From: Psammoneis japonica | Lineage: Eukaryota | DNA length: 64,000 bases | Assembly (NCBI GenBank): GCA_008632985.1 | Contig: QPGO01000041.1 | Location: forward strand, 248,001-312,000 | Reading direction: 5' to 3' | Shown here: positions 17,200 through 62,341 of the stretch, piece after piece | Numbering within the stretch: the first letter of the stretch is position 1 | How the letters are laid out: each line of letters opens with the position of its first letter | Program-made: the position numbers and the translations under genes | The notes under the pieces: generated by a model | Seen by the model: the letters and a program-made list of their open reading frames with translations, nothing else | The model's database searches: none | What the model was told of the DNA's origin: nothing

Positions 17200-19240
17200 A
17201 AGGTGTTTTGTTCATGCTGCGCCCGCTCATGGCTTGATGTTTACGGTACATGCAAGCCGCACAATGCACAGACAGTGCTAGCTCGGTGTGTGCCAGCCGC
17301 CGCGGCCGGCGCATCTTGCTTGCTCAGCCTTCAGTTTGAACTTCAGCGTTCACACAACCCTCTTGAGAACACTCCACAAGGCCTCACACCCTCCCTCGAC
17401 CTCAGACAATGGGCTTGCCTGCTTTGAGAACTGTGGTGCACAGTGCTGGTAGGTGTGCATGCACAAATGACGCGCATGCAAAGACATGCTGGCTGGCTGC
17501 TGGCTGGCTGGAAGAATCGCCACTGGAGTTTCGGGCTTCATTCAAACAGTGCCACCGGTGCACCGTGTGCCATCCAACAATGGGGATTGAGCATGGGGTC
17601 CAAGGCCCTTGGTGCCATTGAACACCTTGGTTTCTCTGAGTTTTGTGTCATGCTGCCAGACAGGGTGAAAAAAAGTGGTGGGAGAAGAAAAGGGCACCCG
17701 ATGGTTGCTGCGAGCATGCTGTGGTTGATGTTTGTTCTCAGGGGCAATTAAGGTGTCATTGACACTGAGGACCAGGTTCTTGCTTTTCTGGAAAAGTTTT
17801 TTTGGAAGCAATTCACTCAGCAGCGATGCACGATCCACACGAGCAACGAGCAACATTGCTCCAAAAAGGCGCGCTGCCATTGACAGGCAAGCAAAACGCA
17901 ATGGAAGTGCATCACTCAGGTGATGAACTTCAAGACAGAAATTGCAAAGACATGTTGTGCTCTGCATTTTGAAATGTGCAATGCCTTGGATGTGAAAAAC
18001 AATCTCACAACAACAAGGGACACTTCAGACAGCAAGCAGACCCTTCAACCACCACAACAGAGAGCAAATCTCCACGGGTGGAGATTTGCTCTAATGAGAT
18101 GATGAGCACAACACAAAAATGTCACATGGCACACAATCTGTGCAGAATGTGCCATGCGCATTTGCTTGTTGCAAGTTGCTCCAAGGGTGTGGCTTTTGCT
18201 GCTCTGTTGTGACAGCAACTCACAATGAACGAACCTCATTGTTGAAGGTTGAGATTTGGTTCCTCTCTGTGCATGGATGAAGCACGCAAAAAACCTGGTG
18301 TTAAAAGTTAACATTGAACTTTCTAAATTGCAAAAATGGTTCCCCAGAGCTTTTGGCAAATGCGTGCTCCAAAACAAAATTGTGCGATTTCTTTGACACT
18401 CACATCTGAGAACATTTTGTTCAACATGTTTTCTGATCAAGGCATTGACCAAAAGCAAGACCTTGCTGCTCTTTCAGACTTGTGGGCAGCCTGGGAATTT
18501 CAGTGCAATTTTGTGTTTGAGCCTGTGTTGCAGACAGAACATTTGCCACAGCAGCACTCACTTCTGGTGCCTCACACAATCTGGCTGGAGTGGGATGACA
18601 CACCACCGCTGTTTGACTGTTTCACCCTGTCGACAGAGTGCAGTGCATGTGCGATGTTTGTGCCATCATCTGTCCCTTGATCAATGGGTGCACCACAATT
18701 TTCTAAAGTGAGAGTCCATGACCTGCATGACCCCTGTGCTGTGCTGGTGGCATGCCCACAGCAGCACTTGGAACCCCACCTGCACAAGCAGCCATGCACC
18801 CCCAGGCAACAACCAAGTGCAAGTTTTTCCTTGTGGTCATGGGGTGGATGGCCCAAGAAGCAGTCAAAACACATTCTCTCACCCTCTGTCAATGTCAGAG
18901 TGTGAATGAGAAGAGAGAAAGCTGTGGCAAGCAGTGCTTGTTGGCTCTCTCTTTTTTTCAATGGCCAATTTGTTGCTTGATGGTCACAGCTGTGAGTGAC
19001 TTCAAACCACTGCACCAACCTTGACACAGCTCCAATGTTGACAAAGAGTGTGCAGGCTTGTGCTCACACAGTTTTGAGTGTTTGCAACCCATCTTTGGCT
19101 TGCAACTGGACCCACATTGTGGCACCAACACTTGTTTCTGTTTTGGTGGGTGCCCGCATGTTCATGTGATGCGTCTCTCCCGATGTGTCTCTCCCCATGA
19201 CGGGGATGCGGTTGAGCCAGGTTGAGCACAACAGCAGACG
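17200..19240. other. Hypermutated block 2
   Basis: Same TA/CG depletion; remaining TA sites are mostly TTAA/CTAA. Confidence 0.8.
18061..18092. repeat. Perfect 15-bp palindrome with 2-nt spacer
   Basis: AGAGCAAATCTCCAC-GG-GTGGAGATTTGCTCT. Confidence 0.9.
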
Positions 19241-35799: not shown

Positions 35800-38700
35800 G
35801 ACAGACGTGTGTTCGCATTTTAGCACAGCTGCAGAGAAGAGCACTGGGGGTCCTGCACCTGTGAGTTGCTCCACAGGAGTCAAAATGTGGGACAAAGCTG
35901 CAGCCCCATGGGAGATGCCCCCAAGCAGACCAGCTGGACTCATTTCAACAGTGGTGTGACAAGGTTGCCACCAAGGTGCTTTCAGGAGAGCTCAAGTGAA
36001 GAAGAAGCATGCTGTGGCTCAACAGAGCTCTGCGCAAAACCGCCTCTTTGTTGTCCCCTGGAGCTGGTGCAGATTGCTCAAGGGAGTGTCGCTGCATGAC
36101 TTTCAAGCAAGTTGGAGCTTCTTGATCAGAGATCATCACAGGACCACCAACAGTCTGTTTTTGATGCATCTGCTGCAGGAAGCTCCCCCAGTCATCTCTG
36201 TCCTGCTGATGATCTGCAACATGGTGTCCATGCAGGCATTTGCACACAAAATGGTCTGGATGTTGCAGAAAAAGGGCATTGGAGTGGCTGGGCATTGACC
36301 CAGACATTGCCACAGCAGCAAGAATGAGAAATGACATCAAGGAGGCCCATGAATGGAGCACAGCCTGTGTGACGAGCATCAGCGTCAGAGCTGTTGGCAG
36401 TGCATGTTGATCTTGTGGGGAGAGCAACCCTGCCTGTGTTGCAATCACTCTGCTGTCTTTTGCAGGGACACTCTAGAACAGCAAGCATTGGCCAGGGCCT
36501 GCCTTGACATTTGTTGAGAACAGCCACATGTCAAACCACCAATTTCTTGCTCTTTGACAACTGGGTGGCAGGACAAGCAGCATGTTGTAACTGGATTGCA
36601 ACCTCTTGAGCATTTTTCCCTCATTTCAAGCTTTTGCAGGGCATGTGGGCTAATTGCAAGCACATGGTTGCACTCAGCCAGTTGCTTCAGTGAGTCAAAC
36701 ACAAGGTGGATTGACCACAGCAAGCCTTTGTGTGTGGCAGTTGCTGAGGGAGGTCTCTCTCCAGCTGCGCTGCCAGACTGGATCTTGAATGTGAGCTCTC
36801 TGAGCTGTCTGTTTCTGTTGCCCCCAACTTTGATTTGTCAATGGTGGCTTGCCTGCTGTGTTTGCTGTTGCTGGATCTGCTGGTGTTTCAGGCCATTTGC
36901 AGGCTTTCACAAAGAACACATGATGAGACTGGATGCCTGTGGCCCCTTGCAGGCTTCATTCTTGTGCCACCCTTTTGCCAAAGTTGAGCTCTCATTTGGC
37001 TGTTGGATCCTGTCTGAGGTCTTGCAAGAGAGAGTCATTTGTCCCTTTTGCCAAAGCCTTTGACTTGTCCTTGATGTTGCCAACTCATGAGTGCCCAGCT
37101 GTTGCAAAGAACGTGTCCAGGGCTTGGTCTGAAGGAAAACAGCTGAGGTGTGGTGAAAGGTGCCAGAGCATGGCAGTTGAGCTTGTTCATGCAGGTGGCT
37201 TGAGAGTTGGTGAATGGTGCCAAAGAACCAGATGAGAGTGCAGCCATGCAGGTGGCTCAGGCCATGCAAGATGAGGCTGAATGTTGACTGACTGGCAGAC
37301 ACTCCCTGCCCCACAGTCCATGGAGCACAGACAAGCACAAGTGCCTGCCACACACAGCTCTTTTGTGCTGTCACAGCTGCTGCATCTTGAAAGCCAAAGC
37401 AATGCATCACAGTGCAGAGGTTTTTAGAAAGACTTTTGAGGCAGACCCAGCATCAATGTTGAAGAGCTGCCTCTTTGACTGGTGCTTTTGTCATGGTCAA
37501 ACTCAACAAAGCTTGCATCACAGGCAACAAGAGCAGCATTGATGAGCACAACTGGTGGTGGGTTCTTTTGTTCCCAAGGTGTGGTCAAAGCTTCCAGTGC
37601 TGCATGTGGGCCAAATGGGCCAATCTTGATGCAGCAGACTCAATCTTGTTGACAGTGCTGCATCCTTGTGTGGTGCAGCACATCATGGTGTTGGAGCAAC
37701 TGAGACTGACAGCAGAAACAAGAACAGCAGCTTTGCTTCTTGTCAACCCTGCAGCCTTTCCCAGTGGTCAAGAAGGCAGAGGGTGTTCCTGTGGCTGCCA
37801 CACTGCACATGCACTCTGCTGTCTCTAACAGCAATCTGTCATCTCACAGCTCTCTCTCAAAATCAACACACTTGCATGTGGGTGCAATGGCAAAAAATGT
37901 CAGCAGCAACTGGCACAATCTAGGCAGAAACAGGGCAGGAAGTGATGCAACAGCTCTCATTGCTCTGTGGAGTGTCAGCTCAACACAAAGATGGACTCTC
38001 TCTGTTTTGGATGCAGTGCATGACACTTTGCTCAACAAAGATCTTCAAAGCCCTTCACAAAAGCCTGAGAACTCTTAAATGAAAAACACTTTGTGCCGCA
38101 AACACAGGCAGATGTTGTTGCCACATCAGAAGGAGTGATGGAGCCTTGAGCCAAAGAGGGAGTGCCAGTGGTTTTTGTCAGAGGTGCTGCTGGAGTGAGT
38201 TGTGGCTGCTGCAGTGTCAACATGAGCTCTGGGGGGGGGGGGTTGAAGTGTTGGCACCCTTGGATGAGACTCCTTTTGGCAACAGCACAGTTTTTGGTTG
38301 GGCTGGGGGCAGCTCCCAACTTGTGCAGGTGGCAAACTCCAGGAAACTTCTTTCTGGGGTGCGGTGCAGTGGGCTGCAATCTGCGTGGCAACTGGGGGTT
38401 GCAAGGTGAGCAGCAGCACACTGTGCTCAAAAAACAAACACAAATAAAAGCAGAACAAATTGCAAAAAGTAGAAATTACAAGATTGGATTTTACACTGTG
38501 ATTTGGGGATTCTCTGAAGGAGTTCTCAATGGCTCAAAGCATTGGAGCTGCTCCCACAGAGTGAAGGCCATTTGGAGAATATAATCAGGACAACAAATCC
38601 AGATGCAATCAACATTGACATTTCATGTGTCAACATCATCTGTTGATTGCACCTGCAATTTTAGACTTCTGACCAATTCTGTGTGATTGATCTGCTGACC

Positions 38701-41700
38701 ATCATGCACATCCATGATTGCAGTGCGATCTGCACACATGACAACACATGATTATGAACATGCACAGTTTTGTCTGCTCAACAATGCACACTGCATTTGG
38801 CTCCCCAATTGCACATTAGAGTCATTTGTCAAATGGAGTTGTTCGATGGATGTTGATGGCTTCAATGACATCACCACATTTGATCTGTGCTGTGCCGCTG
38901 GCATGGCTGAGCAGTTGTCATGACACAAGGCCTAGCATGGTGGGGCTGTTCTAATTTTTAAGAATCTTTCTCCAGCAGGATCTTCTCTCCCACTCGTCTG
39001 CATGTGTGTGGAATGCACTGTGCATTCTCTCCAGCATCATTTTTGTTTGTTGCATCTTGTTTTTGTTTCTGGACAAACTTCCAGCTAGCAACATGTTGGA
39101 CATTGAAGATCATGTCTCTGTCAAAGACCAATTGTCCTGGCACAGCTTGCACAGCAGTGTGACATGTCAAACATGCTGCAAAGGCCGCTGCTGACAGCAT
39201 TCCTTCAAATGGATTCTGGTCATCCAGGGGTGCATTTTTTGCAAATCAAATGTGTGCAGCATGTTGCCCAGTGCTTGATGCATGTGCTCAATTGTGGTGT
39301 TTGCTTGTGGATTTTGTGCAGTTGTGGGCTTGCACTCAATGCCACAATCTTCTTGGACCATTGTTCTAAATTGGTGCCCAACAAGCTCACTTCCATGATC
39401 ACAAGTGATCAACGATGGCCAAGGATGTCCACTTGACTGTGCTCTTTCTAACAACCCAACAACAGTCATGGATTTCTCACTTGGAATTTCCACTGCTTCA
39501 AACCATCCTGTTGCCGGATCTGTCAGTGTCAGATGTTTCAGAGCCAGGAGTTTCTTTTTGCTCTTGTGACGTGTCTTGTGTGGACCAACAAGATCCACAC
39601 ATGGTCTTTCCCATGGCACTGATTCTGCACACTTGAGGGCAAATGTCCACATTTCTTTTGTTTCTTCTTGAATTTCTGGCACATCTCACATTTCCATGCA
39701 TGTTTTTGCATGTCATCATGTGAGGCAGACCACCACAAGTGTCAGGAGATTGTCTCTTCAGCTCTGTTCATGCCAGGGTGCAAAAGGCACATGTGACACC
39801 AATTGGTCACTGACTTTTGCAACATCTGGTCTTTTGCTTGCCTCCACAAAAAGTCTTTGCACAACATGTTGTGTCTGACAATTTGGAGAGAATTCTTCAC
39901 CCCATTTTGTTCAACATCAAGAACTTTGCATGTTGATGGAAAGACATTGTCACATGATTTAGGAGCAATCTTGCCAGCCAGGTCTTCATTGCTGAGGTTT
40001 TCAAAAAGATTCCATTTTCTTCACAGTGAGTCAGCTGATTGCATCTGTGACAACATTTGCTTTGCCCTCAAGGTGAATTGTTTCGTGATGGCACTCTTCT
40101 GTTGTTGGTCACCAACACATGACTCCATCTGTTGTGAAATTCTTGTGGATGAGATTCTTGTGATTCACGCACACATTGTCTGTTGGCCAAACAGCACATT
40201 CCAGAATTCCTCAAGTGTCTCCACTGTGGACAGAAGCTCTTTTTCTGTTGCAGCACACTGTTTCTGTGCTCCACTTAACTTGCAACTGCAAAAGGCAACA
40301 GGTTGGCTGTTTCGCATTGTGACTGCTCCCAACTGAGAAACACTTGCGTTGGCATGTTGTGTCTCAAAAGGAACGTTGAAATTCAAGTGTGGCAACCATG
40401 TGTCTTTTGACACGATCCACTTCACATTTTTCAAGGCTTTTTGTTCTGTGCTTGTCCATGGCCACTTGACCTTAGATGAGGTGAGTTTGGCCAAAGGAGC
40501 AAGAACATGAGATCATTGAGGCTGCATGTCTTGACAATGGCAGATCACACCAATGAAGCATTGCAGCTTCTTGTGAGTTGCAGACATTGCAATTGCTTGA
40601 ACAGCCTCCACTTTCTCAGGCATTGTCTGATGCCATTTTGTGCAATGTGAAAGCCCAGATCACGGCCCACTTCTGGCTTGGCAAAAAATGACTTTTTGGC
40701 ATTGACCTTCAACCTGGCTTGTTTGATCCATGTGAATGTTGTTTCGAGCTTCCTGAGATGATCTTTGAAGTCACCTTTTGTCAGGCACATGCATCAATGT
40801 GAGTTCTGACAAACTCCAATCCTGCCACAAGCTTGCTCGCATGCTCCTGAAAAAAAAGTCCAGAACTCCACAGATTCCTGTGGGGAGTCTGCAGCACTCA
40901 CACTTGCCCTGAAGCATCACAATTGTGCACAAGCAATGTGCATGTGGTGTCAATTTGACATGGCAGCATCCCATGTTCAAATCCAATGAGGTTGCATGCA
41001 TGAAGCCCTCCAGCTTCTGCAGCACATCCTGAATTTTTGGCAAAGGATGCAGAGCACACATCAGCCAATTGTCAAGGTCATGGCAGTTGGACAGAAACCA
41101 AACTCCGCCATTTTTCTTGGACTGAGTGAAGGTTGGAGCTGCCCATTCAGAATGGTTTGTTTTTCTTGGGACTCCTGGTTTGCACAGTCTGTCCACCTCT
41201 TTCTGAGTGGTTGCCTCCAAGGCACTTGTGGATCTGGAAACAGTTTTGCATGGTGCAATTTTGCACCAGGTTTCAATGCTGAGTTGACTGGTTTTCCCAT
41301 CCATTTGCCCAGAGAACCATCAAAAAGAGGTTGAAACCTTTTTAGCAAGAAGCTCAGTTGCTTCTGTTCTTCTGGGGTTAGATGAGTCACTGTGGCAGTC
41401 ACATCATTTGGATTTGCAGCATGACAGTTAGCATCAAGGATCCGATTGATCCTGTCATTAAGACTGTTCACGGCATGGGATTCTTCAATGTGATTGGCAA
41501 TCAGCTTGAACACCTTGGCATCAAAGAGTGTGCCAACATTCTTCAGGGGTGCAGCTGCATCTTCCCACTTGATCTCTTCATTCACAAAGTCAAGCATGAT
41601 GCCCAGGACATTGAGTTGTGCCCCACAATCACATTGCATCTTGAAGAAGTCATTGCATGGAGTTGTTGACATGTGCTGTTTTCTTGATCAGTTTGTGTTT

Positions 41701-43850
41701 GTCAAATTCAGGTGGCGAGAATTGAGTGGCACATCAACCATCAGTCATAAAGAGCCCACCCTTTGTTTCCCAAGTTTTGGTGGTGGATTTCTCATTTCTC
41801 AACTCCCACATGAATTTGCACAAAATCACAGTTGACGATGTTCTGCCACAGAGAAAAATGCACGGCGGCTTGTTTTTCTCCTTTCAAAAGGAAGTGTTCA
41901 CACAAGCAATGACTGCTGAACCACAATTGTTTTTTTTAATTTTGTCATCAGTCGCATGTTTCACATGCACATTTCTGTGTGTGATCTTCCAAAAAATTGT
42001 TCCAGACTTGCTGTTTTGCGAAACCCCAGATGTTTTGTTTGACAAAATTGTGGGAACATCAATGCACCAGGCACATTCTTCAATGTCTGAAGAATGCACC
42101 TGGCTGAGTTTGCACATTCGCAAAATTGCCTCATTCTCTGTTGGCAATCATTGGTGCATTCATTGTCTGACAATTTCACTGCAGAGCTCACATGCAGAAT
42201 TCTGTGGGCCCAATGTCACACGGATTCCAACCTGCATCTGGAATGAGTCCAATGCACTGTGCTCAAAGAATGAGTGCAAACAAAAGCAGAACAAATCACG
42301 AAAAATGGAAATCACAAGATTGGATTTTACACTGTGATTTTGGGATTCTCTGAAGGAGCTCTCAATGGCCAAAAGCACTGGTGCTGCTCCCACAGAGCAA
42401 AGGCCATTCAGAGAATCCAATCAGGACAACAGATTGTCCAGATGCAATTGGCATTGGTGTCTTGTGTGTCAACATCATCTGTCAATCACACCCACAATTT
42501 CAGACTTCCAACCAATTCTGTGTGATCGATCTGACTGTCGTTCGCATCCACAACTGTCATGTGGTTGACACACATGACAACACATGATTGTGAGTGTGCA
42601 CAATTTCATTTGCTTGACAATGGTGCATGCTGCAGCAGGAAGAGGGGTGGACAGGAGGACATCTTTTGTTTGCTGTGGCTGGAGAGAAGTTGAGTGCAGT
42701 GCGCTGGGGTCGCACACAAAAGCACAAGCTTGGCACTTTGCATTCATTGTTCTGTTTGCAAAGTGCCAGTCACATGTTCAGCAGCAAGCATGATGACCTC
42801 TGCATGCCATTGTTCCTTCACAAGCCTTGATCCTTGAAATGCAGTGTGTGGCAACATGCCCCTCAGCATGGGATGACTTTGGATCTGTGCAATCCCACGA
42901 GGAAACTCTGTCCGCCAGTGCATTTTGGGGGGTGTCAGCACAGATTAACAGACTTTTGCCCTTTGCTCAGAGCAAGTGGGTGGGGCCAGAGTCTTAAAAG
43001 CAATGCAGGACCCTCATTGGTTGTCCATGCAAATGACGCATTTGGGCAAAATGTGCCATTGACAACACAACATGCAGTGGGACATTCCCATCCAAAATGC
43101 CACCACTGTTTTTCCAATGACCCCTGGTTGATTTTCTTTTAAGAACACAGCGTCAAACATTGTGGCACAGGTGCTTGTCAAACAGGCACATGAAGGAAAA
43201 TTGATTGGAAGTGCATGCTGCGCAGTGCCAGCTGCAAGCCAGTGGCATTCCATGGCTTCTGAGCACCGGCACATGCACACAGAAACAAGTTTGTTGCAGT
43301 TGGGGACCACGAATCAATTGCCGACATGCTTTTTTCCACGCAAAACATGCTGTTTTTCTCAGTGAGTGGGTCCGTCATTCCTGCGCAGATGGTGGATCAC
43401 TCTCAGGTCATGAGCTGTGCTTTTGCTGCAAGCAAGCGGGGCCCATGCACCACACAGCGAAACAACAAAAACTCTTCAGCATGCTGTTGTCAACACTGGT
43501 GGCAAGCATTTTCAATGTAAACACCTTCGCTCTGTTGGTGCAAATGGCGCATTCATCGTCATTTTCCTCATCGCTTTCGTTGGTTTCATCATCCGACATT
43601 TCGTGTGTGGCATGGCAAACACTCTGCTTGCGCAACGACCTTGCGTGAGATGCACCAGCAAAGTGCTGACACCTGCTGCCTTGTGCACGGCTGGCATGTC
43701 TTTGGACGCAACAAGCACCCTCCACAATGGCCTCTGGCGCCGATGGCACCCGATCGAAGAAGGTGCCCGCCCTCTTCCTGGCAAGCGAAACTCTCGTCCT
43801 TGCACGCGGCTTGCCACTGCCCTGTGCATGTTTTAGGCAGTGGCAACGAC
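35800..43850. other. Hypermutated block 4
   Basis: TA/CG depletion; includes a decayed Gypsy element with both LTRs. Confidence 0.85.
38417..42634 (-). mobile_element. Decayed Ty3/Gypsy LTR retrotransposon (RT-RNaseH-integrase; gag/protease region largely lost)
   Basis: Direct LTRs 38417-38795 and 42253-42634; 4-bp TSD GCAG; PBS-like TGG after the 5' LTR; PPT GGGGAG before the 3' LTR. RT: SEWAAPTF, LDLNMGCCHV. RNaseH: QLGAV..PVAFCS.KL..TEKELLS. Integrase: VDLVGP, DPATGWFE, NPQAN. Confidence 0.92.
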
Positions 43851-44171
43851 TCACCACTACACTGTTCACCACCAGCAGAACAGTGCTCCTCCTCTCACCA
43901 GGATCACGATTCTCCTACGGCAGTGTTGGGGGGTCTTACGTCTTAGTGAGTGGGTCATTTCCACGTGCCGGTAGACAGAGGATCACTCTCAATTTTATGC
44001 TATCTCGTAGAATCAGTACCAGTTCCTCGTAGCCAGAAATAGCATGATAGACATAGAGACCGCCACTGCGATTCTCGCTGCCTGTACCGGTACACTCTAC
44101 ACTGTAAACACCCAAGGCGAGGAGTCGCAAACTGTCTCTGTGATACAAAAAAATGTAAAGATTGAAAAAAA

Positions 44172-46789
44172 ATGGCGCTATCCCCAGTCACTTTCTCCCC
44201 ATCGACGCACCTTATTCTCCTTCTCTGCACTTTTACAAAAGTAGTAGCCACTGCATTCGTACCATCTCCATTTATCAGCTGGCACATGCTCAAGGATGCC
44301 GACACACCCAGAGGAGGATCAAGTTCACCGGCAACTACCACTACTGCTTGCATCCTCGAATTTGACACGGCAGATAGATCGCTCCATATTCATAGTAGCG
44401 ATGGAGAAGAAATATGTCTCTTTGCGGCTGTGTCACGAGTGTGGTCAGCGAAACCATCCGACGACAATAACGGTGTATTCCTACACACGTCGCACCCAAC
44501 CAAAGCGTCGGCATTTGATACATCACTGGGCAAACTGTTCACATGTCATCGATTACTGGCCTGTGCTCGAGTAACCCGATATTGGATGGGACCTGCGTTC
44601 GGTACCAAATCGAAACATATACCTCTTGACACGCAATTCTTGATGCTTGAAATCAAAGAGGGTGGTCCGTATGCCCTACTTTTGCCATTGTTGGATGGTG
44701 ACATTCGCGCTAGCTTGAGTGGCAGCAACAAAAAGAACGAGATTCTATGCCACGAAGAGAGTGGAGATGAATCCGTTTCGACATATGGTACTAGAGCCTT
44801 ATATGTGGCGGTGGGTGATGATCCATACAAGTTGCTTAGGGATGGCTTTGCCACGGTGGCTAGAGAAACTTTAACGTTTGCCACGCTCGATACGAAAACG
44901 TTACCACCAAATGTGGACGAGTTTGGTTGGTGTACCTGGGATGCCTTTTATTCAAAAGTAACGCCTCAGGGTATTATTGATGGCGTCACATCATTGAGGG
45001 AAGCGGGGATACAACCGAAAACGATTATACTAGACGATGGATGGCAACAAGTTGAGCCGCAGAAGAAGAGCATTGAAGTTGCGTCACCTGAGGAACAATC
45101 GAAGCCAAGGTCGTCAATAGCTACCAAGATTGCCAACGGTGTGCTTAGTATATTTGAAAAAGCTCTATCGACATTGTATGAAACCTTTGTTAGAAAGGCA
45201 CCTTTCAACTCGATTCCGAACAGAATCTGGCGCTTCCTTGCACGAACCGTACTAAAGGGACAACTTTGGGAATATTTTGACAATGAAACTGATTTTGGGA
45301 GGCAATTAAGCGGATTTCACTTAATGAAAAGTTCCAAGAAAATACCGATGAGTCCACAATCGGCCTAAAGGAACTTGTATCTCGCTTAAAGACAGAATTT
45401 GGAGTAACGCGGTTGTTTTGCTGGCACGCACTTCACGGCTATTGGCGCGGAGCAACTCCCAAGCTGGGCAAGGATAATGGGTTCAATGTAACGAATTTGA
45501 TGCCACAGCTTTCTGAGCACCTGTTGAAAGTTGAACCAGTTTTGGCGTGGGATGCAGTGTCGCTCTTTGGGGTTGGTCTCGTGACAAATGAGCAGGACCT
45601 GTCCAAATTCTATGACTATCTACATTCCCCTCTAGTTGATGCAGGAGTCGATGGAGTAAAAGTCGATGTACAGTCTGGCGTATCATCGCTTGGTGGCGGC
45701 ATTGGCGGAGGTAGTCGCATTGCTCGTTTGTATACACAAGCTCTAGAGGATTCAGTGGCGACAAGGTTTGCTTCTCAAGACGGCGGCATCAGTTGTATTA
45801 ACTGCATGTGCCATTCAACCGAAAATTTGTATCGATACAAACAAACGTCATTGGCAAGAGCATCGGATGATTTCTACCCCAGACGACCCAATAGTCACAC
45901 TGTGCATTTGGTGAACGTTGCATACAACTCACTCTTCATTGGGGAAATTTGCATGCCTGACTGGGACATGTTCCATTCCAAGCATGAATCGGGAGGCCTA
46001 CACGCCGCGGCTCGAGCAATCAGTGGTGGTCCAGTTTATGTGAGTGATGCACCTGGCGAGCATGACGCTGAACTACTGAAACGACTCGTTTTACCAGATG
46101 GATCCGTGTTGCGCTGTCTACTACCTGGCCGACCGACACGAGATTGCCTCTTTGCCGATGTAGCCAAGGATGCATCTAGTGTATTGAAGGTTTGGAATCA
46201 AAATCATCATGGCGGTGTTGTTGGACTGTTCAACTGTCAAGGCGTCGCGTGGAATTATAACACGCATGAGAATGAAGTTGTGAACAAGTCTCCACCGATG
46301 CTGACTGCGTCCGTCAAAGCTCATGATGTTGAAAGCCTGCGAAATAAGAATTGTCCATTTGTTGCTTTACGTCACCGAAGCTCGGCACTTGAATATCTTC
46401 GAGATGGAAACGCGACAGTACAGAGCAACATATCACCGAAGGATTGGGATATTATTACATTTGTTCCGGTGCAACAAACAAGTAATGGCGGTGTAGCTTG
46501 GGCTCCAATCGGTCTTGCCGACATGCTGAATACCGGAGGAGCAGTGCTCAACGTCACAAACATTGAAAATGACAACGCTTCTGCTTCTTGGGCAATGCTT
46601 ACAAGCCGTGGTCCGGGACGTTTCGTTGCCTTCTGCCGACCAGCACCAACGCAACTATCATTGATTCATGATCCAGATTCAGCCACCAACTTGCCTTTTA
46701 CGTACGATGCTGGGTCGGGATTGCTGAGCTTTGTCCTGCCAAGTGAGAGGGATGGTGCTCCGCATCGTGTAAAGGTTGTTTGGGAATGA
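44172..46789 (+). CDS. Raffinose synthase / seed-imbibition alkaline alpha-galactosidase (GH36), probable plastid presequence; apparent frameshift near 45320
   Basis: FGWCTWDAFY, IILDDGWQ, WHALHGYW, DGVKVDVQ, RASDDFYP, PDWDMFHS, AISGGPVYVSD; TAF-VP motif. Confidence 0.9.
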
Positions 46790-52138: not shown

Positions 52139-55100
52139 TCTTGCTTCTATGTTACGGCAGGGGAGAACTGCTTTAGTTTTGACCCGGGTGAACCTTTTGT
52201 TGAGACGAAAGTTGCAAGTTGCGAAGGATCTTGCTGTGAAAGGTTCAAACGGATGTATGAGAGATGCAGAGATGCACTAAGCACTGAGCATAGAGCATAC
52301 TACTCGTAGTACCATGCTGAGGTGGTGGCGATGTTTTGGTTGGTCGTCGGAGAGAATTTTTGGTGGCTTTTCACGAGCCAGCTTTTTTAGTCGTCCGAGT
52401 CGATACACCCCCCCTCCCCGCGTCCGCTTGCATCTTTCTTGATTCTTGCATGATGTGCAGGCATGTTGATGTGTGCGTTGTGTGTGGATCAACAATGCGC
52501 TGTCTTGCCAGCTTTGTGTTGTTGTGGTCATGGCATTTGCGCTCAAATGCACCCTCAATGTCCCCACAGTCATGGCAGCACACTGCGGCTCTTGGGATGA
52601 CAGCCAAGCTCTCCTGTGTTGTTTGGTGAGCTGCTTTTGCTGGAAACCCATTGTTGTGTTGCACTGGTTGAATGGAGTCTAAAATTTGTCACAAGAATGG
52701 GGCAAAGACTCCATTTCTGAAAACACCCTTTCATGCACATTCTGGAGTCTTTTTGCACAGCTTCAGCGCAGCAGGTGCCACGCCGCTCTCTGCCTTGAGT
52801 CCATGTCTGTTGGTCTGTCACATTGTGCCAGGGTCGCATGCAGGCGATGTGTTCTGGTGCTCTTGTGGATGGATGGAGCATCTGCCACCAGGAATTTAAA
52901 ACACACACACAAGTCAAAAAATTTTCCATGAGGGTCATGGATTCAATGTGTGATTTCAAATCCACCTCCTGCCAGTGCGGCAACAATCCACTTTCTGACC
53001 ATGAGCACCATGGCACATGGCACTTGAGTCATTTCAAGAGTGCACCACAGTGCTTTCCTCCCACATTTGGCCATCTTCAATGAATGGTTGGATTGCAAAG
53101 CACTTCATTGACAGACAAGAGAGCTCTCGTTCCTTGATTTGAGCTCAGCGATTGCACAGAATGAAGAGATGGACCCCAGCTGATCCATTGCTCTGTCTTG
53201 GAAGCTCACATCCCTCAAAGCATCAGCTTGGGGTCATTCTTTCATCCCTGTTTCATGTGGTGAGCAATCCATTCTAGCCACCTGCAATGATTCAAATGAC
53301 CCACCAACAAGCTTGGAGGAGATGGACGAGACAAGTTTCAACCAAGAGATGTGTCACTCCACCAATGTGCATGTGGTGGATCCCCCAAGGGGTGTCCATG
53401 TTAGAGGACATGCTTGTGGCAAAAGCTGATGATCCATTTTTGTCCTGCATTGCTTCTGTGCAATGAAGAGAACAGAAAGTCCACAAGCCCCACAAACAAA
53501 GGTGTGAGCTGAGCAGGTGCATGTTCTTGAAATTTGCTGCATTTTTGGTGGCTCCTTGATTCTCTTCAATGCCATTGCAGAGAATCAACTCCAGTTTTGA
53601 CATGCCCAAACCAACTGCAAATGCGCACTTTCTGACTTCTCTCTTCTTTTCATTGGGAGCAGCACAAAAACTGCAGTTGCCAACAACTGTGGTGGTCTTC
53701 TGATGCAATTGCTTGCACAAGTGCTCCTTGATCACCACCTCCTCTCTCCTCCTTGTGGGTGTCATTTTGCTGATGCTGCTTCAGGCTCACATCAGAAGTG
53801 GCTTTTTCTGTGAGACATGGTTTGCTTTTTTGTGATTTTCTGTTTCAGCTGCAATGTTGGCAACTTTGATTGAGGATGCTGTGATCATGGGTCAAAAAAG
53901 ATGCAGGACACCTTGGATGACAATGCTGTGCTTGTTTGTTGACACCCCTGAATGCCCCAGTTGCAGCGTCAGCTTTTTTTTTCATTTTTGTGCTGACAGT
54001 GTTGTCCCAGCAGCCTTGATGAGAGAACAAAATGTGTTTGACACAAGGGTGTGTCATTGGTCAAAGCCACATGCTGAGTGCCAGCAATTCATCCCAAGCA
54101 ACAGTGTCAGATGTGTCTTTTTTTTCAAGTTGCTGGATGCAAGGACACTGGGGGACCTCAAAACCAATCCCGATCCTCTCACAAAAAATGCCGGTGCACT
54201 TTTGCAAACTGGTGCATGATCAAAATGACAAAAATGCCATGTGTGATGAGCATCCACGAACAATTCTGACCATGAAACAACCATGGATTGGCCTGGAAAG
54301 TGGCGCATTGTTGAGCGTGTCAACAGACTTCTGTGTCCACCATTTGTTGCTGTGTTTTCAATGGTGGTTCCTTGGGCAGGTGCACATTTTGGGACTCCTG
54401 TTGAGGAGTTTTGTTCACAATGACATGTCCCACCATTCATTTCAAAGCACCATTCATTTCCTTTGATCACCCTTTCTCATGTTTTTCTTGTTTTCTCTCT
54501 CTTTCTCTATTTTCCACATGACTGGTTGGTGTTTTGGCAGGCTGCATCTGCATCATGTTTCCTTCTTTTCCAGCCCCTGGGTGTGCACTGCATTTGTTCA
54601 GAAGGCACTTTTCTCAGTGGCACAAGACACCACTCTTTCAATGTTTGAAACCAAGTCTTTGTTTTGGCAACCCTTTGGCCCATGACTCCTTTTTTCTGGC
54701 TCTTGATGAGGTTTCCTGCAAGTCCAGCAAGAGAAGCCCTTGCTCCAAGCTCTTTAGACAAGCTTGTTTTGGACTCTGTTTTTTGCAACAATGGACTCAC
54801 CTGAACTCTGTGTCTGCCTTCTTCTCTCTGTCCTTGTGATTTTGTGGCATGTTGCTTGTTGATGTGATGCTGGGTGGCGCTTTTGGTTTGTGTCATGTTG
54901 ACATTGAGCAATGAACAGCTGCACAAAGGAAACATGCTCGTGAGTTGTCATTTGACAAAAAAATTCTGCTTCTGGGACAATGCTTCCATGTTGCCTTGCG
55001 GATGTTCTCAGATTTTGCAGAAAAAGTGCTTGGTGCCAACTGACACACATGGCAATGTGCCTTGCAGACTGTGCTGATGTTCATTGTTTGGTTCATTGCA

Positions 55101-55402
55101 CAGATTTGTTGAGAAACAGAGTGGCGCCAGGTTCATTTGCATGTCATTTTTTGATGATGTGTTCATCAGAGGTGCATGGGTGGTCTTGTCATCCGCGCAT
55201 GTGCTTCCTTGTGCACAACCAATGTGCGAATGACAAAACAATTTGTGCACCTCTGGTGTTCATTGCATGTCACAAGAGTTTTGATGTTTCCCATGGCAGG
55301 CATGCAGGAATCCAAGGTTTCCCTCTGGAGTCATGCTCACCACGTGCTCTGACCCCTCTCATTCTTCTCCAAAGCCAGACTTTTTTAAATTGCAGACTCT
55401 GT

Positions 55403-55655
55403 CAAGTTGAGGATTGAAGCCGCACAAATGAGCATCAAGTTCTGCACGCGCACATGAAGAGCAGAAAAACAGGGTTTGTCAAGTGGAAATCAGTGTGGTC
55501 AAAACCAGCGGTGCCATGGGAGCTGGTGCCGCTTGGGTGGGTTTCCTCCCACTGACAACCAGTGCACTTTCTGAGTTTGCAAACCCTGTTTTTCTGCTCT
55601 TCATGCATGTGCATGGAACTTGATGCTCATTCAAGTGGCTTCATTCCTCAACTTG
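55403..55655. mobile_element. MITE-like element with ~76-bp terminal inverted repeats
   Basis: 55403-55478 CAAGTTGAGG...GAAGAGCAGAAAAACAGGGTTTG is the reverse complement of 55580-55655, with mismatches mainly at TG/CA/CG. Confidence 0.8.
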
Positions 55656-57179
55656 TCATGGAACTGAAGCCTGCCACCTCCATGTCTTTGCACCACAGGT
55701 GAGCAAGAGCTGTTGCAACAACAAAGACAGTTCAATCCCAGTCACAGAGAATCATTTGTTGACTGTGCTGCATGGTTTCAAAGGCTGCATCTGTGCATGA
55801 GAGAATGGCATGGCAGCTGGCCACAACAACAAGAGCACAACTTGGTGATGGCAAAATTGAATTTGCCATTTTGACGACTTTGACCTCAGAAAGTTGCACA
55901 TTGCCTCCTGGGCAAAGAGGCATGGGTTGCCAACCACATGAGAACTTGCTTCCTGAGCAAGGGGGCAGAAAGCCAAAGATGTCAAGCTGCCAATCTGGGC
56001 ACTCTTTGGAGCTCTTCTTTGTCTGTGTGCCAAAATCATCAGATGGGCCACCATGCATCCTGCCATGCATTTTGAAATGAGGAGGGTCAGAGTGCTTCTT
56101 TGCTGCCATCTCAAGCATCTGCAAGTCATCTGCACAATCAATGTCTCTTCTCACTGAGAGAGAATGAGAGATGGAAGCTCATCTTGTCAGCCACAGTCAT
56201 TTTCCCCTTTGTTTGCCACTGGGCAGAAAAAGCACTGGCAAGAAACACAAAAACAATGGGGTGCAAAAAACTTTGTTTTTGTCAATCAGTGTTCAACAAC
56301 ATCCCAATCCATCAAACAGGAAATTATGAAGAAAGCATCAACACTGAGAGAGAGTGTGTGTGCACTGGCAATGGCATCAGGCAGCATGTTGAAATGCCAG
56401 CAGCACACCAATGCTCTGGAGGGCACCCGCACAATGACAGAGGGGCATGCAATGAGAACAAGAAACAGCAACAACACCACAACCAACAAAATCAAAACAC
56501 ACATGCACAAATGAATGACCCCCTCCCAAAAAACCAATGTCGGCACACACGAAACTCCCCACAATGTCAACCATGCAACTGGAACCTGCTGTCTCCACAG
56601 AGCCTGCTGCACGAATGTGTCTCTGCATGCAGGGCACAAAGTGAACTCTTGGACACAGCACTCACCATGGTTTGGCAGACATTGTTCTTTGGTTGATGAA
56701 AATGAACAAGCCATCTTTTTTGTCAGAGGGATGGCCAAATTTGTGATGTCAAATGGAGGTGAAAGGGCGGGGCTGCTGTTGTGAGGATTTTCAAATTTGT
56801 TTTTCCAATGCAGAGCAAAATGTTGGGAAGCAGCATTGTGAAGTGCAAGTTTCTGCACAATTTGATTGTGGAAGGTCCAATGAATGTGCAGCACAAGAAG
56901 CACAATGAAAGGAAGCTTCTTTCCGGCCAGCAGGAACAACAAAATCAGGCCACAACAAATGAGCACCAACACACAATCATCCCAGCCTGCTCATTGTCTC
57001 CAACCATCAGCAAGTGCCAGTCACAGTGGAAGGGGCAACTCATGCAAGCCGCCTGACATGCAGGGTGGGTGCCAGGTGCCAGAAGAAATGGCGGCAGCAG
57101 CAAAAACAAGAGAGAGAAAATGAGTGACCCCCTCCCTGAGCTTGGCATTTTGAAAACGGAAAGTCCATTGTCGGCACAA

Positions 57180-58400
57180 TCAGATTTCAACAAACCACTG
57201 CTGAAAATGTGCCTCCATCATTTTTGAAGCATCTTCCTCCTTCACAATGATCTTCTTCCCCTTGTTCAGGACATTTCCTTCAAAGGGTTGCTTTTCCAGC
57301 TTGTCCAACTTGCCCTTTGGCATCACAAAAATTGCATGGCAAGGTGCCCGCGTTGCGCTGATGCCTTCCATGTAATTTGTGATCTGACAGGCCCGCCATT
57401 CTTTGGCAGGTGTTTTGCATCGGCAATCGTCACCTGCAGAGGATGCAAAACTCCATCCATGTGGAAGCAGCGGAAATCACACGTGGGAAAATTGGCTGTT
57501 GTGGGCCACACCAATGCACGGGCACCATGCTCCATCCATTGTCTGTTGCAAGACCTCTCCACAAGGGACTGTGCACTTGGACAAAGTGCTGCAATTGAGC
57601 ACCACAGCATCACCCAACTGTGGTGCAATGATCAACTTGGATGCCTGGCCTTCCAAGCCTTGCAGCAAAAACGTCCCTCCCCCTGGAAAATGATGGATGG
57701 CATGTGCTTCAAACAAGGCACCAGCATGACCTTCCGCTCCTGGCAGAGACCTTGTCATGTTGGTGGTTTCTTTCAGCTTGCACAGAGTTTCCTTGTGGAG
57801 CTTCTGGGAGATGCATGCCTCGGCGTGCCAGGAGACCAAGTCATGAGAAATGTTGCCATCATGCTTGAAAGATTGGCCAGCATTTTTGGACGGTTCCCAT
57901 CAAACCAGTGCATGCACCACAACTCTTTCCATCTCCTTGTCTGTCTGCTGCATGGCCACCATGGTGCAAAGGTTGCTTGGGTTTGCTGCTTTTGCAGAAT
58001 TGTCAACCTTCTTCTTTGCCAGTCCTTTGTCAAAAATGCAGCAAACAACTCCATTCACATGGTCAAAATTGTCACTCACACAGCCTTTGTCTCTGTGCCA
58101 AGTGAGTTGCCCAATTTGTTTGCCTTGCTGCATGACCAAGTTGGCATGCATGGGTCTCGATGGAATGCCACAGCATCAAAAAGGTTTTTGGTGCAAACGC
58201 TTGGAGAGGCTGCCACAACAATCACTCCGCAGAAGTTCTCAACAGAAAAGCTCATGGAGCACCCATCTGTGAACATGGCATCAAGCTTTGACAAATGACC
58301 AACCTCTGTCTTTCTTGAATCTCTCATCAACATCACACATCCACCTCTCTTGCGTGCAGATGACTCCACTGCTCTCGAATCTCAGTGAGAGCCAAGATGA
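57180..58400 (-). pseudogene. Decayed Crinkler/RHS-like (NTPase + PD-(D/E)XK nuclease) gene
   Basis: Fragments VIVVAASP...(Y)MPTWS; LVWPTTANFPT(Y)DF...PLQVTIA..KH; (Y)AIFVMP...KQ...QQWFVEI*, resembling CRN/RHS C-termini. Recognised from memory of the family only. Confidence 0.6.
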
Positions 58401-58774
58401 CCTCAAGACCTCAATGTGATGGATTCAGGGGGGTGCTGTCATGAGCTTTGTCATCACAGTCATCACAATTGCAGCTTTCTTGTTGTCTCTCATCATTGTC
58501 CCAATTGTCACAATCACAATCATCATCTCCACACATCAACATGATTTCATCTTCTGGAGTGCAGCTTCTGCTGTGCATCACAAATGTTGCAATTTTTTGT
58601 GAGAATGCACACGAACACTCGCTTGCACAAAGCATGCTGTTAGACTGCACCCTGGAAGAAGTGCAACACACAGCTGCCAATGAGAGTCAATGTATCACGG
58701 CGACGTGTTGCAGCCTTTAAATGTCACAAAGGGCGTGACAAAATAACCTTTTGTCTGCATGCACACTGCATTGT

Positions 58775-58848
58775 GAATTCACAGCGGAGTGGTACATCGT
58801 AACCACACTGGGCAGGAGGCCAGGGGTTCGAAACCCGAGTGGGAGTTG
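58775..58848 (+). promoter_or_regulatory. tRNA-derived Pol III A-box/B-box module
   Basis: A-box CAGCGGAGTGG (58782-92) and B-box GGTTCGAAACC (58825-35) at tRNA-like spacing; no good cloverleaf. Confidence 0.55.
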
Positions 58849-59091
58849 TCTGCAGCAACGTTGATCACTGTCGAACGCGTAAAACTCTGTGCAGTTCTGT
58901 GTGTTCCTTCGTACGCACCCACACTGTTCCGCCAAAACCGTGCAGTGTCAGTGCACGTTAGCAAAGAGCCGCATGGACGCGTGACACATGGGGAGGAGTG
59001 CAACACACAGCTGCTAATGAGAGTCAATGCATCACGGCGACGTGTTACAGCCTTTAAATGTCACAAAGGTTGTTTTTGTCACGCCCTTTGT

Positions 59092-60103
59092 GCACGCGAT
59101 CTACGTTGCGTAGAAAGATCAGGAGTGTCTCGCGTGCAGCCGTAGAAAGGTGCGGAGTGCCCATCTCGTGCGTTGGACCATCCGGATCAGCAGGGTTGTT
59201 GCGCAGCTTGAACGTCTGGTGCTCGCCCTGCTGCAGCTCTTTCTTCTCCGGCCGGCTCAACCCGCTTCTTCATGGTCGTTTTAAGATTTGTCGGTCCTGC
59301 CAACATTTCGCAGTTTCGTTTCTGCAGATTTCGTCACCTCGCACAACATGCGGGAGTGACATTGCTGTGCCCCATGCACGTGCCAGGCACTGAAAAAAAG
59401 AGATGTGTTGCGACTTTGTCGCTGTGAAAATTGTGAGCCAGTTTGGAGCAGAGAAAATGGGATCGTGCGAATGGGGAATCTTGCCAAATCCCCATTCGCT
59501 CGCATTTCGATCGTGTCAAATCGATCGTGCGCTCGCATTGTGGATCGTGCGAATCAAGCCATCACGCGCCATGCACGAGTGATGTCATTGTGTGGAATCA
59601 CGCTGCCATCGTGGGCCAGACGACGGGCTGGTGTGCTCCACACGGACGCTCTCTTGGCATCCTTCTGGATTTGCCCAAGACCCAGAGCCACGCCCTCCTG
59701 TGGTCGTGCTTCCCAGGCACGTGTTGACAATGCCACGTTGCCACGCACAAGAGGCTCATGCACGGTCTCGCTGTGTTGTCCAGCAGTGAGGCACACTGCA
59801 CACTCCCCCATGATCAGGGCCGTCAAGTGACAGAATGTCTTGCTGGTGACAGGGTGCAATCTGCCGCAGATCACACGCACCCATCAGCGCTCCGTTCTGG
59901 GTGCGCAACGTGCCGTTGTCACACATGCGGACAACTCTGGCGGGTCCTGCGCAGCTGTCAGAACCGCGTTTAGAGGATTGTTCCTGTTTGATGAGTGCCA
60001 ATTGCCCTGCGGCACATTGGCGCTCCTTGCGTTTCTGATTTTCACGCTTGTTGTTCAAGTGGATGAGCTTCTGCTTTCTGGTTTCTATGTGCTTCCACTT
60101 GGC
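59092..60103 (-). mobile_element. Gypsy fragment: integrase C-terminus, PPT, single LTR (~59442-59800), PBS, gag N-terminus
   Basis: KWKHIETRKQKLIHLNNKRENQKR...GP..V...DNGTL; ATGGGGGAGTG|TGCA; TGG PBS near 59440; RPEKKEL..GEHQTFKLRNNPADPDGPT. Confidence 0.8.
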
Positions 60104-62341
60104 ACGGTCGAACGCGCAAAACTCTGTGCAGTTCTGCATGTTCCTTCGTGCGCACCCACACTGTTCCACCAAAACTGTGCAGTGTCAGCACACATGAGCG
60201 CAGGTCATGTGACACATGGGGAGGAGTGCAACATGCAGCCACTGACAAGAGCCAGTGTGTCACGGCGACGTGTTGCAGCCTTCAAATGTCACAAAGGGCG
60301 TGACAAAATAACCTTTTGTCTGTGTGCATGCTGCAGAAGCCTGGACAGCTCAAATTTTGTTGTTGATTTGTCACCTGATGCCTTGATTTCATCCATGTGC
60401 CAACCACCATTGCTTGGACAGCAAAGAGAAGAGCTTGAACAGCAAGCAAAGAGACAAGCACCATGCAGCAGCATGCTTTGCAATGGCATCTGTTGCTGCT
60501 TTTGTTTTTGAAAATGATTTGGTGAAAAACTGTGTTGGCTTCTGTCAACTTCTTTCAAAATGCTGCTTGATGATGTTCTCAAACAGCACAAGAACAAATG
60601 CTTGCTTTTTAAAAGCTCAAAAGTGAAAGCAACACAAGCACAGCTTCCTGCTGATTGCTCCAGACTTGGGTGGCACACACACGCATGCCCATTTTTGCAC
60701 AAAAACAAAAATTTTATGATGTGTTCATTGCAACAAATTTCTGCATTTTGCGTGTCATGTTCATGACTGAAGCTTGAATGAACAAGAAAAAGGAAAACAA
60801 AAACACAGTCCTCGTGGCTGTCAGCAGCCATGACGGTTCCCTGCTTTCAACCTCATGGACAATTGAGCAGCATCATGAGGACCACATTGTTCGATGCAGT
60901 TGACACATGAACCACATGTGATGAAAAACAATTGCTGCAGTCTGTGGCACACTTTTGCACTTCACCATGGTGACCACAGCTTTCAGAAGCAACAGCCTGC
61001 ATCACTTTGTGCCAGAGTTGATGCTGAGAACCATTGCTTTTCTTTTGTCAAGCAAATCATCAACATCAAGCAAGCAGCAGGAAAGGGTCTGAAGTCAGGC
61101 AGCGCCATTGTGGTGCCAACATTTTTGTTGTGCATCGTTGCACAATTTGCTGCTCAACAGATGTGTTGACAAAACCGTTGAATTGCAAGCATCCAGCTGC
61201 ATTGATGAAAACAATTGCCACATCTTTCATGTCTTTGTTCACACAAAAGAACATTTGTGCATGTTTTGTGCAGGCACCTTCATGTGGCACAAGTTGCTCA
61301 AGGAAAAATTGAGCTCTCATCTTGCGGCACCATTTGGCAACAACACAAACTTGCTTGGCCAAGCTTCAGAGACAATGATGCTGGCATGCACACGAGACTT
61401 TTTTGCACACACACATGTGTCTGCTTTTTTGCTGTCAAAAATTGTGCCACAAGTTCGGGTCGTGCATTTGATGTGAAAATGGGCTTTTTTTTTTTGCGCA
61501 CGCGTGCACCTGAGTCTGGAGCAAATCTGAAGAAGATGATGAAAAGAGAGACGCCATGTTGGGCCTGTTCCAGCTCCAGGTGATCTGCTTTTCATCATGC
61601 AAGAGGCAGATTTTTTGCACAGTTTGGCACACTGAACTCCTTCAATTTTGATCATTTCGAAAATCAAAAGGCAAGTGCACACCCAAAAATGCATGTGAAG
61701 TGCACACTCACCCTTCGATTTGGCAAAAAACGGATTTGGAAAAAGTCAATTGCGCCAAACCCAAAAATGGGCAAATGATGGGAATCGAACCCACACGGAT
61801 GAGCACCTGGAGCTGGAACAGGCCGTTGGCATGATGACCAAAAGACATGCGATCTTGCACACAATCAGTGTTGGGCAAATGTCAATGACACATGATTGCC
61901 AATTTTCACTGTTTCAAAGACATGGCTCACTTCAACAAAACACATCTTGCAATGACTTCTTGCGAGCAGCACAAGAAGGTGCTCAGCTGCGCAGATGCAC
62001 CAATGACATCTCGATCATCATGTGGCCCGCACATGTTCTGGCATGTTTTGTGCAGGAAACTCTGTGGTGTGCGTGTTGAGCCAAATCCGCAAGAGCACCG
62101 GAACACATTTTTCGCCACCGTCTGTCTGAATTCAGCCGGCGGTGCGGTCGACGCACAGACACTCACGATGGAGAGTTCGCTTGCTCGCTCGCCATCGCGC
62201 GCTCTTGCAAGGCCTTCACGTCCGTCCGCCTCCCGTCATATCCTGTTTTGCTCGTTCTTTTTGAGAAAGTTTGAGCGAGACGCGAGACGCCATGACGGCG
62301 ACTCGTAGGGCCCAGCGTATGTTGTTGAGCAAGCTGGCAGC

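Follow-up and report, generated by a model that had tools for sequence, protein, structure and literature searches.

The DNA considered here is a 64,000-nt stretch of a Psammoneis japonica contig (QPGO01000041.1, positions 248,001 to 312,000), hereafter the window, in whose own numbering all coordinates are given. Near its right end, at 58662-60334, lies a transposable element (TE) insertion related to Ty3/Gypsy retroelements, which is poor in the dinucleotide TA and still rich in CG. The window as a whole is a mosaic. Its gene-bearing parts (33,455 nt pooled) show observed-to-expected ratios (o/e) of 0.98 for CG and 0.56 for TA. Five depleted blocks, at ~8.0-10.2, 17.5-19.1, 25.5-33.9, 36.0-43.5 and 52.5-62.0 kb (26,219 nt pooled), stand at 0.15 for CG, 0.04 for TA, 1.86 for CA and 1.85 for TG, and the insert sits in the last of them. 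The genes are long, intron-poor open reading frames (ORFs) with eukaryotic domains, including acyl-CoA oxidase, raffinose synthase, PAS-guanylate cyclase, Kelch and similar. The best matches of the acyl-CoA oxidase ORF reach 73% identity, and those matches that bear organism names come from pennate diatoms. The window is nuclear DNA from an intron-poor eukaryote with a raphid-pennate-diatom-like genome.

The insert and its immediate surroundings are organized as follows (LTR, long terminal repeat; TSD, target-site duplication):

52500..58656, no strand: older repeat block forming the left flank of the insert, stripped of CG and TA
58657..58661, no strand: left copy of the TSD, AGAAG, the same 5 nt as at 60335-60339
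58662..60334, no strand: inserted element of 1673 bp with TG..CA ends, delimited by the TSD and an empty-site contig
58662..58770, plus strand: terminal direct repeat A, 109 bp, LTR-like, with 4 CG and 3 TA (self-alignment)
58771..58865, plus strand: stretch with tRNA-like A-box and B-box motifs, read by eye between two repeat copies and unconfirmed as a tRNA
58866..59069, plus strand: internal repeat B, with 14 CG and 6 TA, the least mutated copy of a ~233-bp unit (alignment)
59063..59092, no strand: hairpin built from inverted repeats I1 and I2, its loop inverted relative to the copies at 58725-58754 and 60290-60319
59108..59755, minus strand: non-coding stretch downstream of the integrase remnant, with 50 CG (o/e 0.99) and 3 TA (o/e 0.10)
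59756..60106, minus strand: remnant of the C-terminal domain of a Ty3/Gypsy-type integrase, ~116 codons (phmmer)
60103..60335, plus strand: repeat C, with 11 CG and 1 TA, its final 109 nt (60227-60335) forming the right terminal direct repeat (alignment)
60335..60339, no strand: right copy of the TSD, AGAAG, matching the left copy
60340..62000, no strand: older repeat block forming the right flank, where CG climbs toward 62 kb and TA stays at ~0

The element ends in CA only if it is taken to include the A at 60335, with which the right AGAAG copy begins. The terminal direct repeats align over 117 nt (58654-58770 with 60219-60335) at 84.6% identity, rising to 100% when bases are coded as purine or pyrimidine (RY coding), which is a transition-only spectrum. 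The ~233-bp unit occurs twice, as repeats B and C, and B is 82.4% identical to 60103-60297, or 94% in RY coding; over the internal repeat comparisons, such coding lifts identity from 84.6, 93.7 and 82.4% to 100, 100 and 94%. The two inverted repeats of the hairpin (30 nt, 87% complementary) frame a loop that is flipped as if by exchange between the stem arms. The tRNA-like stretch yielded 0 genes in ARAGORN and no Rfam match at E<=1. Position 58999 corresponds to an element end in other copies of the family, with loose contig ends before 58998 and an agreement of 0.44. Beyond 60106, family copies run differently, into upstream integrase sequence, again with loose contig ends. No clear primer-binding site was found in the insert; on the plus strand, a purine run precedes the repeats at 58999 and 60227, and the integrase remnant lies on the minus strand.

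The identity of the coding remnant comes from a full-library phmmer search, which returned 140 matches at E<=1e-3, 11 of them at <=1e-10, with a best value of 3.5e-14; a word-indexed search with the same remnant gave no candidate. Seven of the 11 scanned matches carry rve, Integrase_H2C2 or RVT_1 upstream of the matched part, and in the two longest (P0219 and P0252) this part comes after RVT_1, RNase H, Integrase_H2C2 and rve. The rest of pol (reverse transcriptase, RNase H and integrase in order) was not found elsewhere in the insert by tblastn with four full or partial pol proteins. Since the integrase tail is all that is left of pol, the insert is a deletion derivative and not a complete member of Ty3/Gypsy. 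We classify it as a rearranged, non-autonomous Ty3/Gypsy derivative. It resembles the terminal-repeat retrotransposon in miniature (TRIM) and large retrotransposon derivative (LARD) forms of Ty3/Gypsy in its short terminal direct repeats, TG..CA ends, 5-bp TSD, high copy number and lack of a complete ORF, and in sharing its termini with a full-length Gypsy element in the same window. Unlike those forms, it has a third internal repeat copy, a flipped hairpin loop and a tRNA-like stretch.

The initial annotation had described 58700-60300 as an insert with abundant CG and very few TA within DNA that lacks both, and the counts agree. That range (1601 nt, GC 0.545) holds 106 CG (o/e 0.89) and 16 TA (o/e 0.19); it falls inside a true insert that is slightly wider, with 107 CG (o/e 0.87) and 18 TA (o/e 0.21), and the CG-rich string quoted as an example lies at 59523-59537. 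The left flank (57000-58650) has 25 CG (o/e 0.26) and 2 TA (o/e 0.02), and the right flank (60336-61900) has 24 CG (o/e 0.32) and 2 TA (o/e 0.02). The core of the insert, 59201-60102, contains 61 CG and 3 TA. By comparison, 561 genic windows of 902 nt contain 19-51 TA (median 33) and 32-74 CG, none having fewer than 19 TA, and the Poisson probability of at most 3 TA where 33 are expected is 3e-11. Beyond the non-coding stretch at 59108-59755, the segment 59756-60106 has 20 CG and 2 TA, and 60103-60335 has a CG o/e of 0.67. A CpG deficit with matching TpG/CpA excess, such as methylation-driven decay would leave, is seen in the flanks and in the full-length Gypsy element, and is absent from the insert.

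The age of the insertion was assessed with contigs of a separate public run (X1) that carries the same organism label, compared over 58300-60700. A single contig of depth 52.3 matches the left flank 58300-58656 at 353 of 357 positions. It then joins 58656 directly to 60335, skipping 1678 nt, and goes on for 30 letters from 60335 onward; the five letters at the joint, the TSD, fit either side. All four flank differences (1.1%) are transitions. Located at 58410, 58440-58441 and 58613, they include one CG/CA difference and one CA/TG doublet (58440-58441), so decay of the old block went on after the two forms split. Inside the insert, 2714 contig pieces reach a summed depth of 3,649-180,694 as against 52.3 in the left flank, and the family numbers hundreds to thousands of copies. 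Run X1 has only 0.38 of the sampled words of the window stretch, as would be expected if the exact copy is missing from that run. The insertion is polymorphic, or at least younger than the 1.1% flank split. The earlier impression of a younger insertion is thereby borne out by the TSD, the empty site and the high-copy family.

Within run X1, the family has 105 variable places, of which 101 are transitions and 4 transversions; single-place details rest on the 40 of 106 variable places that were listed. Copies differ in three ways. One copy may have CA or TG where another has TA or, at other sites, CG; in the third kind, the doublets, CA in one copy faces TG in another. The 30 listed events inside the insert comprise 12 at TA, 2 at CG, 6 doublets, 7 other transitions and 3 transversions. 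Relative to near-fixed family letters, the window copy shows 10 AT->GC changes (4 at TA) and a single CG->TG over 59108-60334. Its window-specific TA losses run to TG at 59445 and 59630, and to CA at 59676 and 59734. Position 59647 reads CG in the window and TG in 96% of the family depth, and is ambiguous as a new CpG.

The repeats inside the insert allow both kinds of loss to be compared within one copy. From repeat B to repeat C, 6 of 6 TA and 5 of 14 CG are lost and one CG is gained (p=0.014). Terminal repeat A and the tail of C have all four CG in common; the contrasts between them comprise 2 TA sites and 6 CA/TG doublets, one of which is still TA in the third copy, B. Two three-copy sites hold TA, CA and TG, one per copy, and TA is therefore ancestral there. 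CpG loss in the insert has only begun, at the right end in repeat C. A scan of the window with 638 windows of 300 nt found 13 that are CG-high and TA-low and none that is CG-low and TA-high, together with 40 CG-mid/TA-low and 22 CG-low/TA-mid cases. The proposal that TpA erosion is separable from CpG decay agrees with the repeat and window counts, and its companion, that TpA goes faster, stands in so far as TpA loss is ahead in this lineage and fails as a rule of order. Taken as one statement, that TpA loss is separable from CpG loss and ahead of it here, the interpretation is partly supported, whereas the observation behind it is confirmed.

The integrase remnant records the same asymmetry at the protein level. 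Five columns dominated by Tyr among the relatives (Tyr in 98, 40, 53, 62 and 51 of 108-139 residues) read Cys, Arg, Cys, Ala and Cys in the window copy. None of the five Tyr is kept, whereas all four conserved Arg columns are, three of them as CGN (Fisher p=0.008). One Tyr had been read earlier as changed to CGC (KYG to KRG), and the alignment of 138 relatives fits this: KRG forms residues 72-74 of the minus-strand ORF 59756-60184, with codons AAA CGC GGT, and its middle column holds 40 Tyr, 32 His, 26 Lys, 21 Phe and 6 Cys. Codon 73 is thus CGC where relatives have Tyr, His, Lys or Phe, and codon 55 is CGC at a column with His in 96 of 136 relatives (CAC->CGC). CGC at His or Tyr columns fits A->G at CpA, so the CpGs at these codons would be new, and the earlier idea that TpA erosion may create new CpG substrates is plausible. 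On the coding strand, deviations from conserved residues amount to 7 A->G, 2 T->C and 1 G->A; they include Asp102->Gly at a position where the family keeps Asp.

Comparison with relatives bears on whether such a composition could be native. Five metagenome relatives (L001-L005), all from other, TA-normal elements, have TA o/e of 0.69-0.80 and CG o/e of 0.84-1.27. A natively TA-poor superfamily is unlikely, because these relatives are normal in TA and conserved residues are destroyed in the window copy; a TA-poor ancestor closer at hand is another matter, as part of the deficit was probably inherited. Among 139 public relatives (P0121-P0260), 37 show Tyr->Cys/His with no Arg column lost and 18 show the reverse. 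The overall protein cross-tabulation (Tyr->Cys/His 156 of 554, Arg 64 of 488) is a hint only, as the organisms and their Arg codon usage may differ. In 25 of these relatives at least three of the five Tyr columns are Cys or His, and 9 of the 25 keep all conserved Arg. Relatives with Tyr->Cys/His imply that TA-losing copies occur in other data sets too.

A fully decayed comparator lies elsewhere in the window:

38419..42622, minus strand: old full-length Ty3/Gypsy-type element with LTRs at 38419-38786 and 42255-42622 (tblastn)

The tblastn match of P0219 covers 38967-41615, and the LTR ends of this element resemble the ends of the insert. Its LTRs, which we take to have been identical at integration, are now 79% identical (96.5% in RY coding) and differ at 6 TA sites and 18 CA/TG doublets. 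Aligned with P0219, it has lost all 39 Tyr, 22 of them to Cys or His, and retains 9 of 51 Arg, with Gln, His, Trp, Cys or stop at 28 of the other positions; Tyr->Cys occurs 13 times and Tyr->His 9 times. Its pol is interrupted by stop codons and frame breaks. The element represents the end state, in which both Tyr and Arg codons are lost.

We read the locus as a later, still polymorphic, non-autonomous Ty3/Gypsy derivative inside a decayed block, exposed to two separable transition processes, and give this account as a whole a probability of roughly 60%. The first process would convert A:T to G:C, mainly at TpA (to TpG or CpA) and more weakly at other sites and at CpA/TpG, where it would make CpG. 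The changes assigned to it hit both strands and are near saturation in the old blocks. The second, ordinary in kind, would convert CpG to TpG/CpA, most simply by deamination of methylated cytosine, and would then depend on methylation. Both together would push every pyrimidine-purine step toward CA/TG. The insert would have passed through the first process, partly in its source lineage and partly, it seems, at this locus, and the second would have only begun in it, at the right end. Because the LTRs of the old element differ and the flank holds an allelic doublet, the first process probably acts on DNA in place. It may be enzymatic, with an adenine-deaminase-like activity of 5'-T preference as the simplest chemistry. 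Adenosine deaminases prefer 5'-U/T, which would fit TpA.

Several observations weigh against this account. TA poverty is uneven within the insert, since the left 446 nt (58662-59107) have 12 TA (o/e 0.45, near genic) and 59108-60334 retains ~6; exposure is therefore patchy and not clock-like. The terminal repeats differ at 16 of 109 positions, six doublets included, a high number if the repeats of a polymorphic insertion started out the same, and copy B is nearer to A than C is. The terminal repeats may thus have diverged before insertion and perhaps were not identical at integration. The 12:2 ratio of TA to CG events comes from the listed subset of places, and the strand split of 17 to 4 among listed single transitions shrinks to 54 to 47 over all places. 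The order of loss also varies: the 22 windows that are CG-low with intermediate TA include 38201-39200 and 30501-31100, and the old LTR at 38419-38786 has 8 TA and 1 CG where its partner at 42255-42622 has 1 TA and 4 CG. TA before CG is not universal, and no law follows.

A further point of this kind concerns methylation. CpG retention may follow the absence of methylation and not slower decay, in which case the insert, like the gene-proximal block edges, would be unmethylated, and the two processes would differ in targeting, not in speed. We consider this alternative unlikely, though it is the one that fares best. A scan of the ten block edges found six with a stretch that lacks TA and still carries CG (o/e 0.30-1.04), the signal being weak in three:

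7921-8500, 17301-17900, 25551-25950, 43201-43830, 52451-52900 and 61901-62240, no strand: TA-free, CG-bearing edge stretches (block-edge scan)

CpG retention may track missing methylation because all six lie 5' of the neighbouring ORF; three 3'-side edges have no such stretch. No edge shows the reverse pattern, CG-free and TA-bearing, over more than ~80 nt. TA o/e is 0.41-0.90 in ten ordinary intergenic stretches from the gene blocks, and the old blocks still hold more of their expected CG than of their TA, which also fits. Parts of PMC2806351 report TE methylation in CpG context in Phaeodactylum, as well as CpG methylation of a diatom retrotransposon. According to sections of a preprint, Phaeodactylum carries only 5-methylcytosine (10.1101/2024.10.28.620566), and N6-methyladenine was for that reason set aside as a cause. 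Differential methylation fits less well with the position of the insert, mid-way in a 9.5-kb depleted block and far from gene starts, with the 5'-side edge at 35950-36400 that has no CG-bearing stretch, and with the CG loss already begun in repeat C.

It is rather unlikely that inherited composition is the whole explanation, the copy having arrived TA-poor and CG-rich from its source lineage, so that the locus tells nothing on rates. Over 59108-60334, the copy departs from the dominant family letters by only ~15 near-fixed differences, and a polymorphic insertion implies that little time has passed. TA/CA alternatives in the repeat B region, at shares of 0.34-0.80, look like subfamily alleles. 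The Tyr-codon changes are absent from the listed window-specific differences, a partial list, and were for that reason probably inherited from the source copy. This too counts against our account, in that the source lineage had probably lost much of its TA beforehand and the insert is no clean clock. Even so, that lineage lost TA while keeping CG, so separability survives, and at least four TA losses are specific to the window copy as against one CG loss. Within one insertion, most differences among copies A, B and C also fall on TA and doublet sites. TA poverty is not seen in healthy relatives, and a working integrase needs the Tyr that is kept in 98 of 139 and 62 of 137 relatives at two columns.

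Editing of RNA or cDNA during retrotransposition would likewise deliver TA-poor copies, whose CpG would then decay slowly in place. This possibility is consistent with a family that went on amplifying while TA-poor, and with 17 of 21 listed single transitions being C/T on the plus strand, that is, A/G on the integrase-coding strand, where the predominance of A->G among conserved-residue deviations points the same way. We nonetheless find it doubtful. All 101 transition places split into 54 pyrimidine and 47 purine changes, and TA->TG and TA->CA occur together within one copy. The old blocks are strand-symmetric (CA 3005, TG 3057), as is suggested as well by the Tyr->Cys and Tyr->His counts of the old element. 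The differences between the LTRs of that element and the allelic CA/TG difference at 58440-58441 in the old flank also speak against editing before integration.

Two further explanations have little standing. Selection on an element that avoids UpA/TpA to escape RNA- or DNA-sensing defence, being natively TA-free, has a precedent in the CpG and UpA suppression of RNA viruses of vertebrates, and is very improbable given that conserved catalytic-fold residues are destroyed (the Tyr columns; Asp102->Gly), the copy is non-autonomous, its relatives have normal TA, and the old blocks combine near-absence of TA with a pol broken by stop codons and frame breaks. An assembly artefact, in which modified bases are miscalled as transitions, is the least credible: modified bases can be a source of systematic transition errors in some long-read consensus sequences, yet contigs of the separate run match the CG- and TA-free flank and show the same variant kinds across thousands of family pieces, TG and CA occur at the same site in different copies, and protein alignments show matching Tyr->Cys/His.

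Among known systems, the closest in form is repeat-induced point mutation (RIP), a repeat-confined hypermutation with strongly skewed dinucleotide indices, as outlined in parts of PMC2621366. RIP needs duplicated DNA and operates in the sexual phase. The pattern in the window is like RIP of Neurospora and other ascomycetes in lying in repeats, with skewed dinucleotide indices, and in being limited to transitions, specific to dinucleotide context, present on both strands and arranged in patchy tracts. It differs in direction, because RIP is C:G->T:A mostly at CpA and makes TpA, whereas here A:T->G:C destroys TpA and the C->T component sits at CpG. Instead of the rise in TpA expected under RIP, the blocks have a TpA o/e of 0.04 with CA/TG at 1.85, and the changes in the insert are mostly AT->GC. 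CpG-context hypermutation of TEs in basidiomycetes and methylation-driven CpG decay of TEs, as described in sections of PMC3318451 and PMC12582260, resemble the CpG->TpG/CpA changes in the flanks and the old Gypsy element. Those systems are without a TpA component; in the insert that component is present and the CpG one is not. Deaminase editing can fix clustered transitions in retroelement copies, according to portions of PMC4866542, and the present pattern is similar to APOBEC or ADAR editing in its clustered, deaminase-type transitions. APOBEC gives G->A; here both strands are hit, and LTR differences point to changes after integration. To our knowledge, ADAR is known from animals only. A full-text literature search found no paper in which diatom repeats lose TpA and CpG together through transition hypermutation. 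PMC2806351, the principal paper on diatom retrotransposons, has none of the terms 'dinucleotide', 'RIP', 'deamination' or 'hypermut', and refers to CpG methylation only. No described process matching the TpA-destroying one was found.

Some further features of the window deserve mention. The raffinose-synthase-like gene is split over the overlapping ORFs 44166-45368 and 45293-46789 (window 44166-46789), which cover profile positions 39-255 and 271-748; the split suggests an intron or a frame shift. TA-free DNA also contains ORFs of 350-430 codons that have no Pfam match, for example 28008-29306 and 57228-58298, and 20 ORFs from the depleted blocks and the insert gave no Pfam match at E<=0.01. 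In such DNA, TAA and TAG are impossible and only TGA stops are left, so long open frames arise by chance. A tandem array at 26914-28781, in a depleted block, consists of ~9 units of ~193 bp that match at 73-82%. The pyrimidine-purine columns of the array contain CA, TG and some CG, and no TA. Its part 26914-28475 has 27 such columns, with minority states of 9 CG, 12 flipped doublets and 0 TA. The array was set aside as evidence on the origin of CpG, as this tally cannot separate ancestral from newly made CpG.

The broader claim is that a diatom lineage has a repeat-directed A:T->G:C hypermutation of DNA at TpA, with a chemistry new among genome defences, which acted in place while the insertion was polymorphic, independently of and ahead of CpG decay, and fed that decay new CpG made from CpA/TpG, a turnover that would account for the many CA/TG doublets by which copies differ. 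In this full form it is tentative, and we would sooner doubt than assert it. Its significance lies in the fact that known repeat-targeted hypermutation is C->T chemistry (RIP, CpG decay, APOBEC), whereas here TpA is also lost via A:T->G:C. A young copy that catches the TpA process without the CpG one means that the two can be told apart and timed, and it is relevant to the way in which decaying repeats regain CpG. There is also a practical warning, in that TA-free DNA gives long spurious ORFs. Should the TpA process work in place on DNA, TA o/e against CG o/e would be a sequence-only marker by which repeats in these genomes could be dated and classified, and the process would point to an unknown mutator or defence in diatoms, which are major primary producers with TE-rich genomes.

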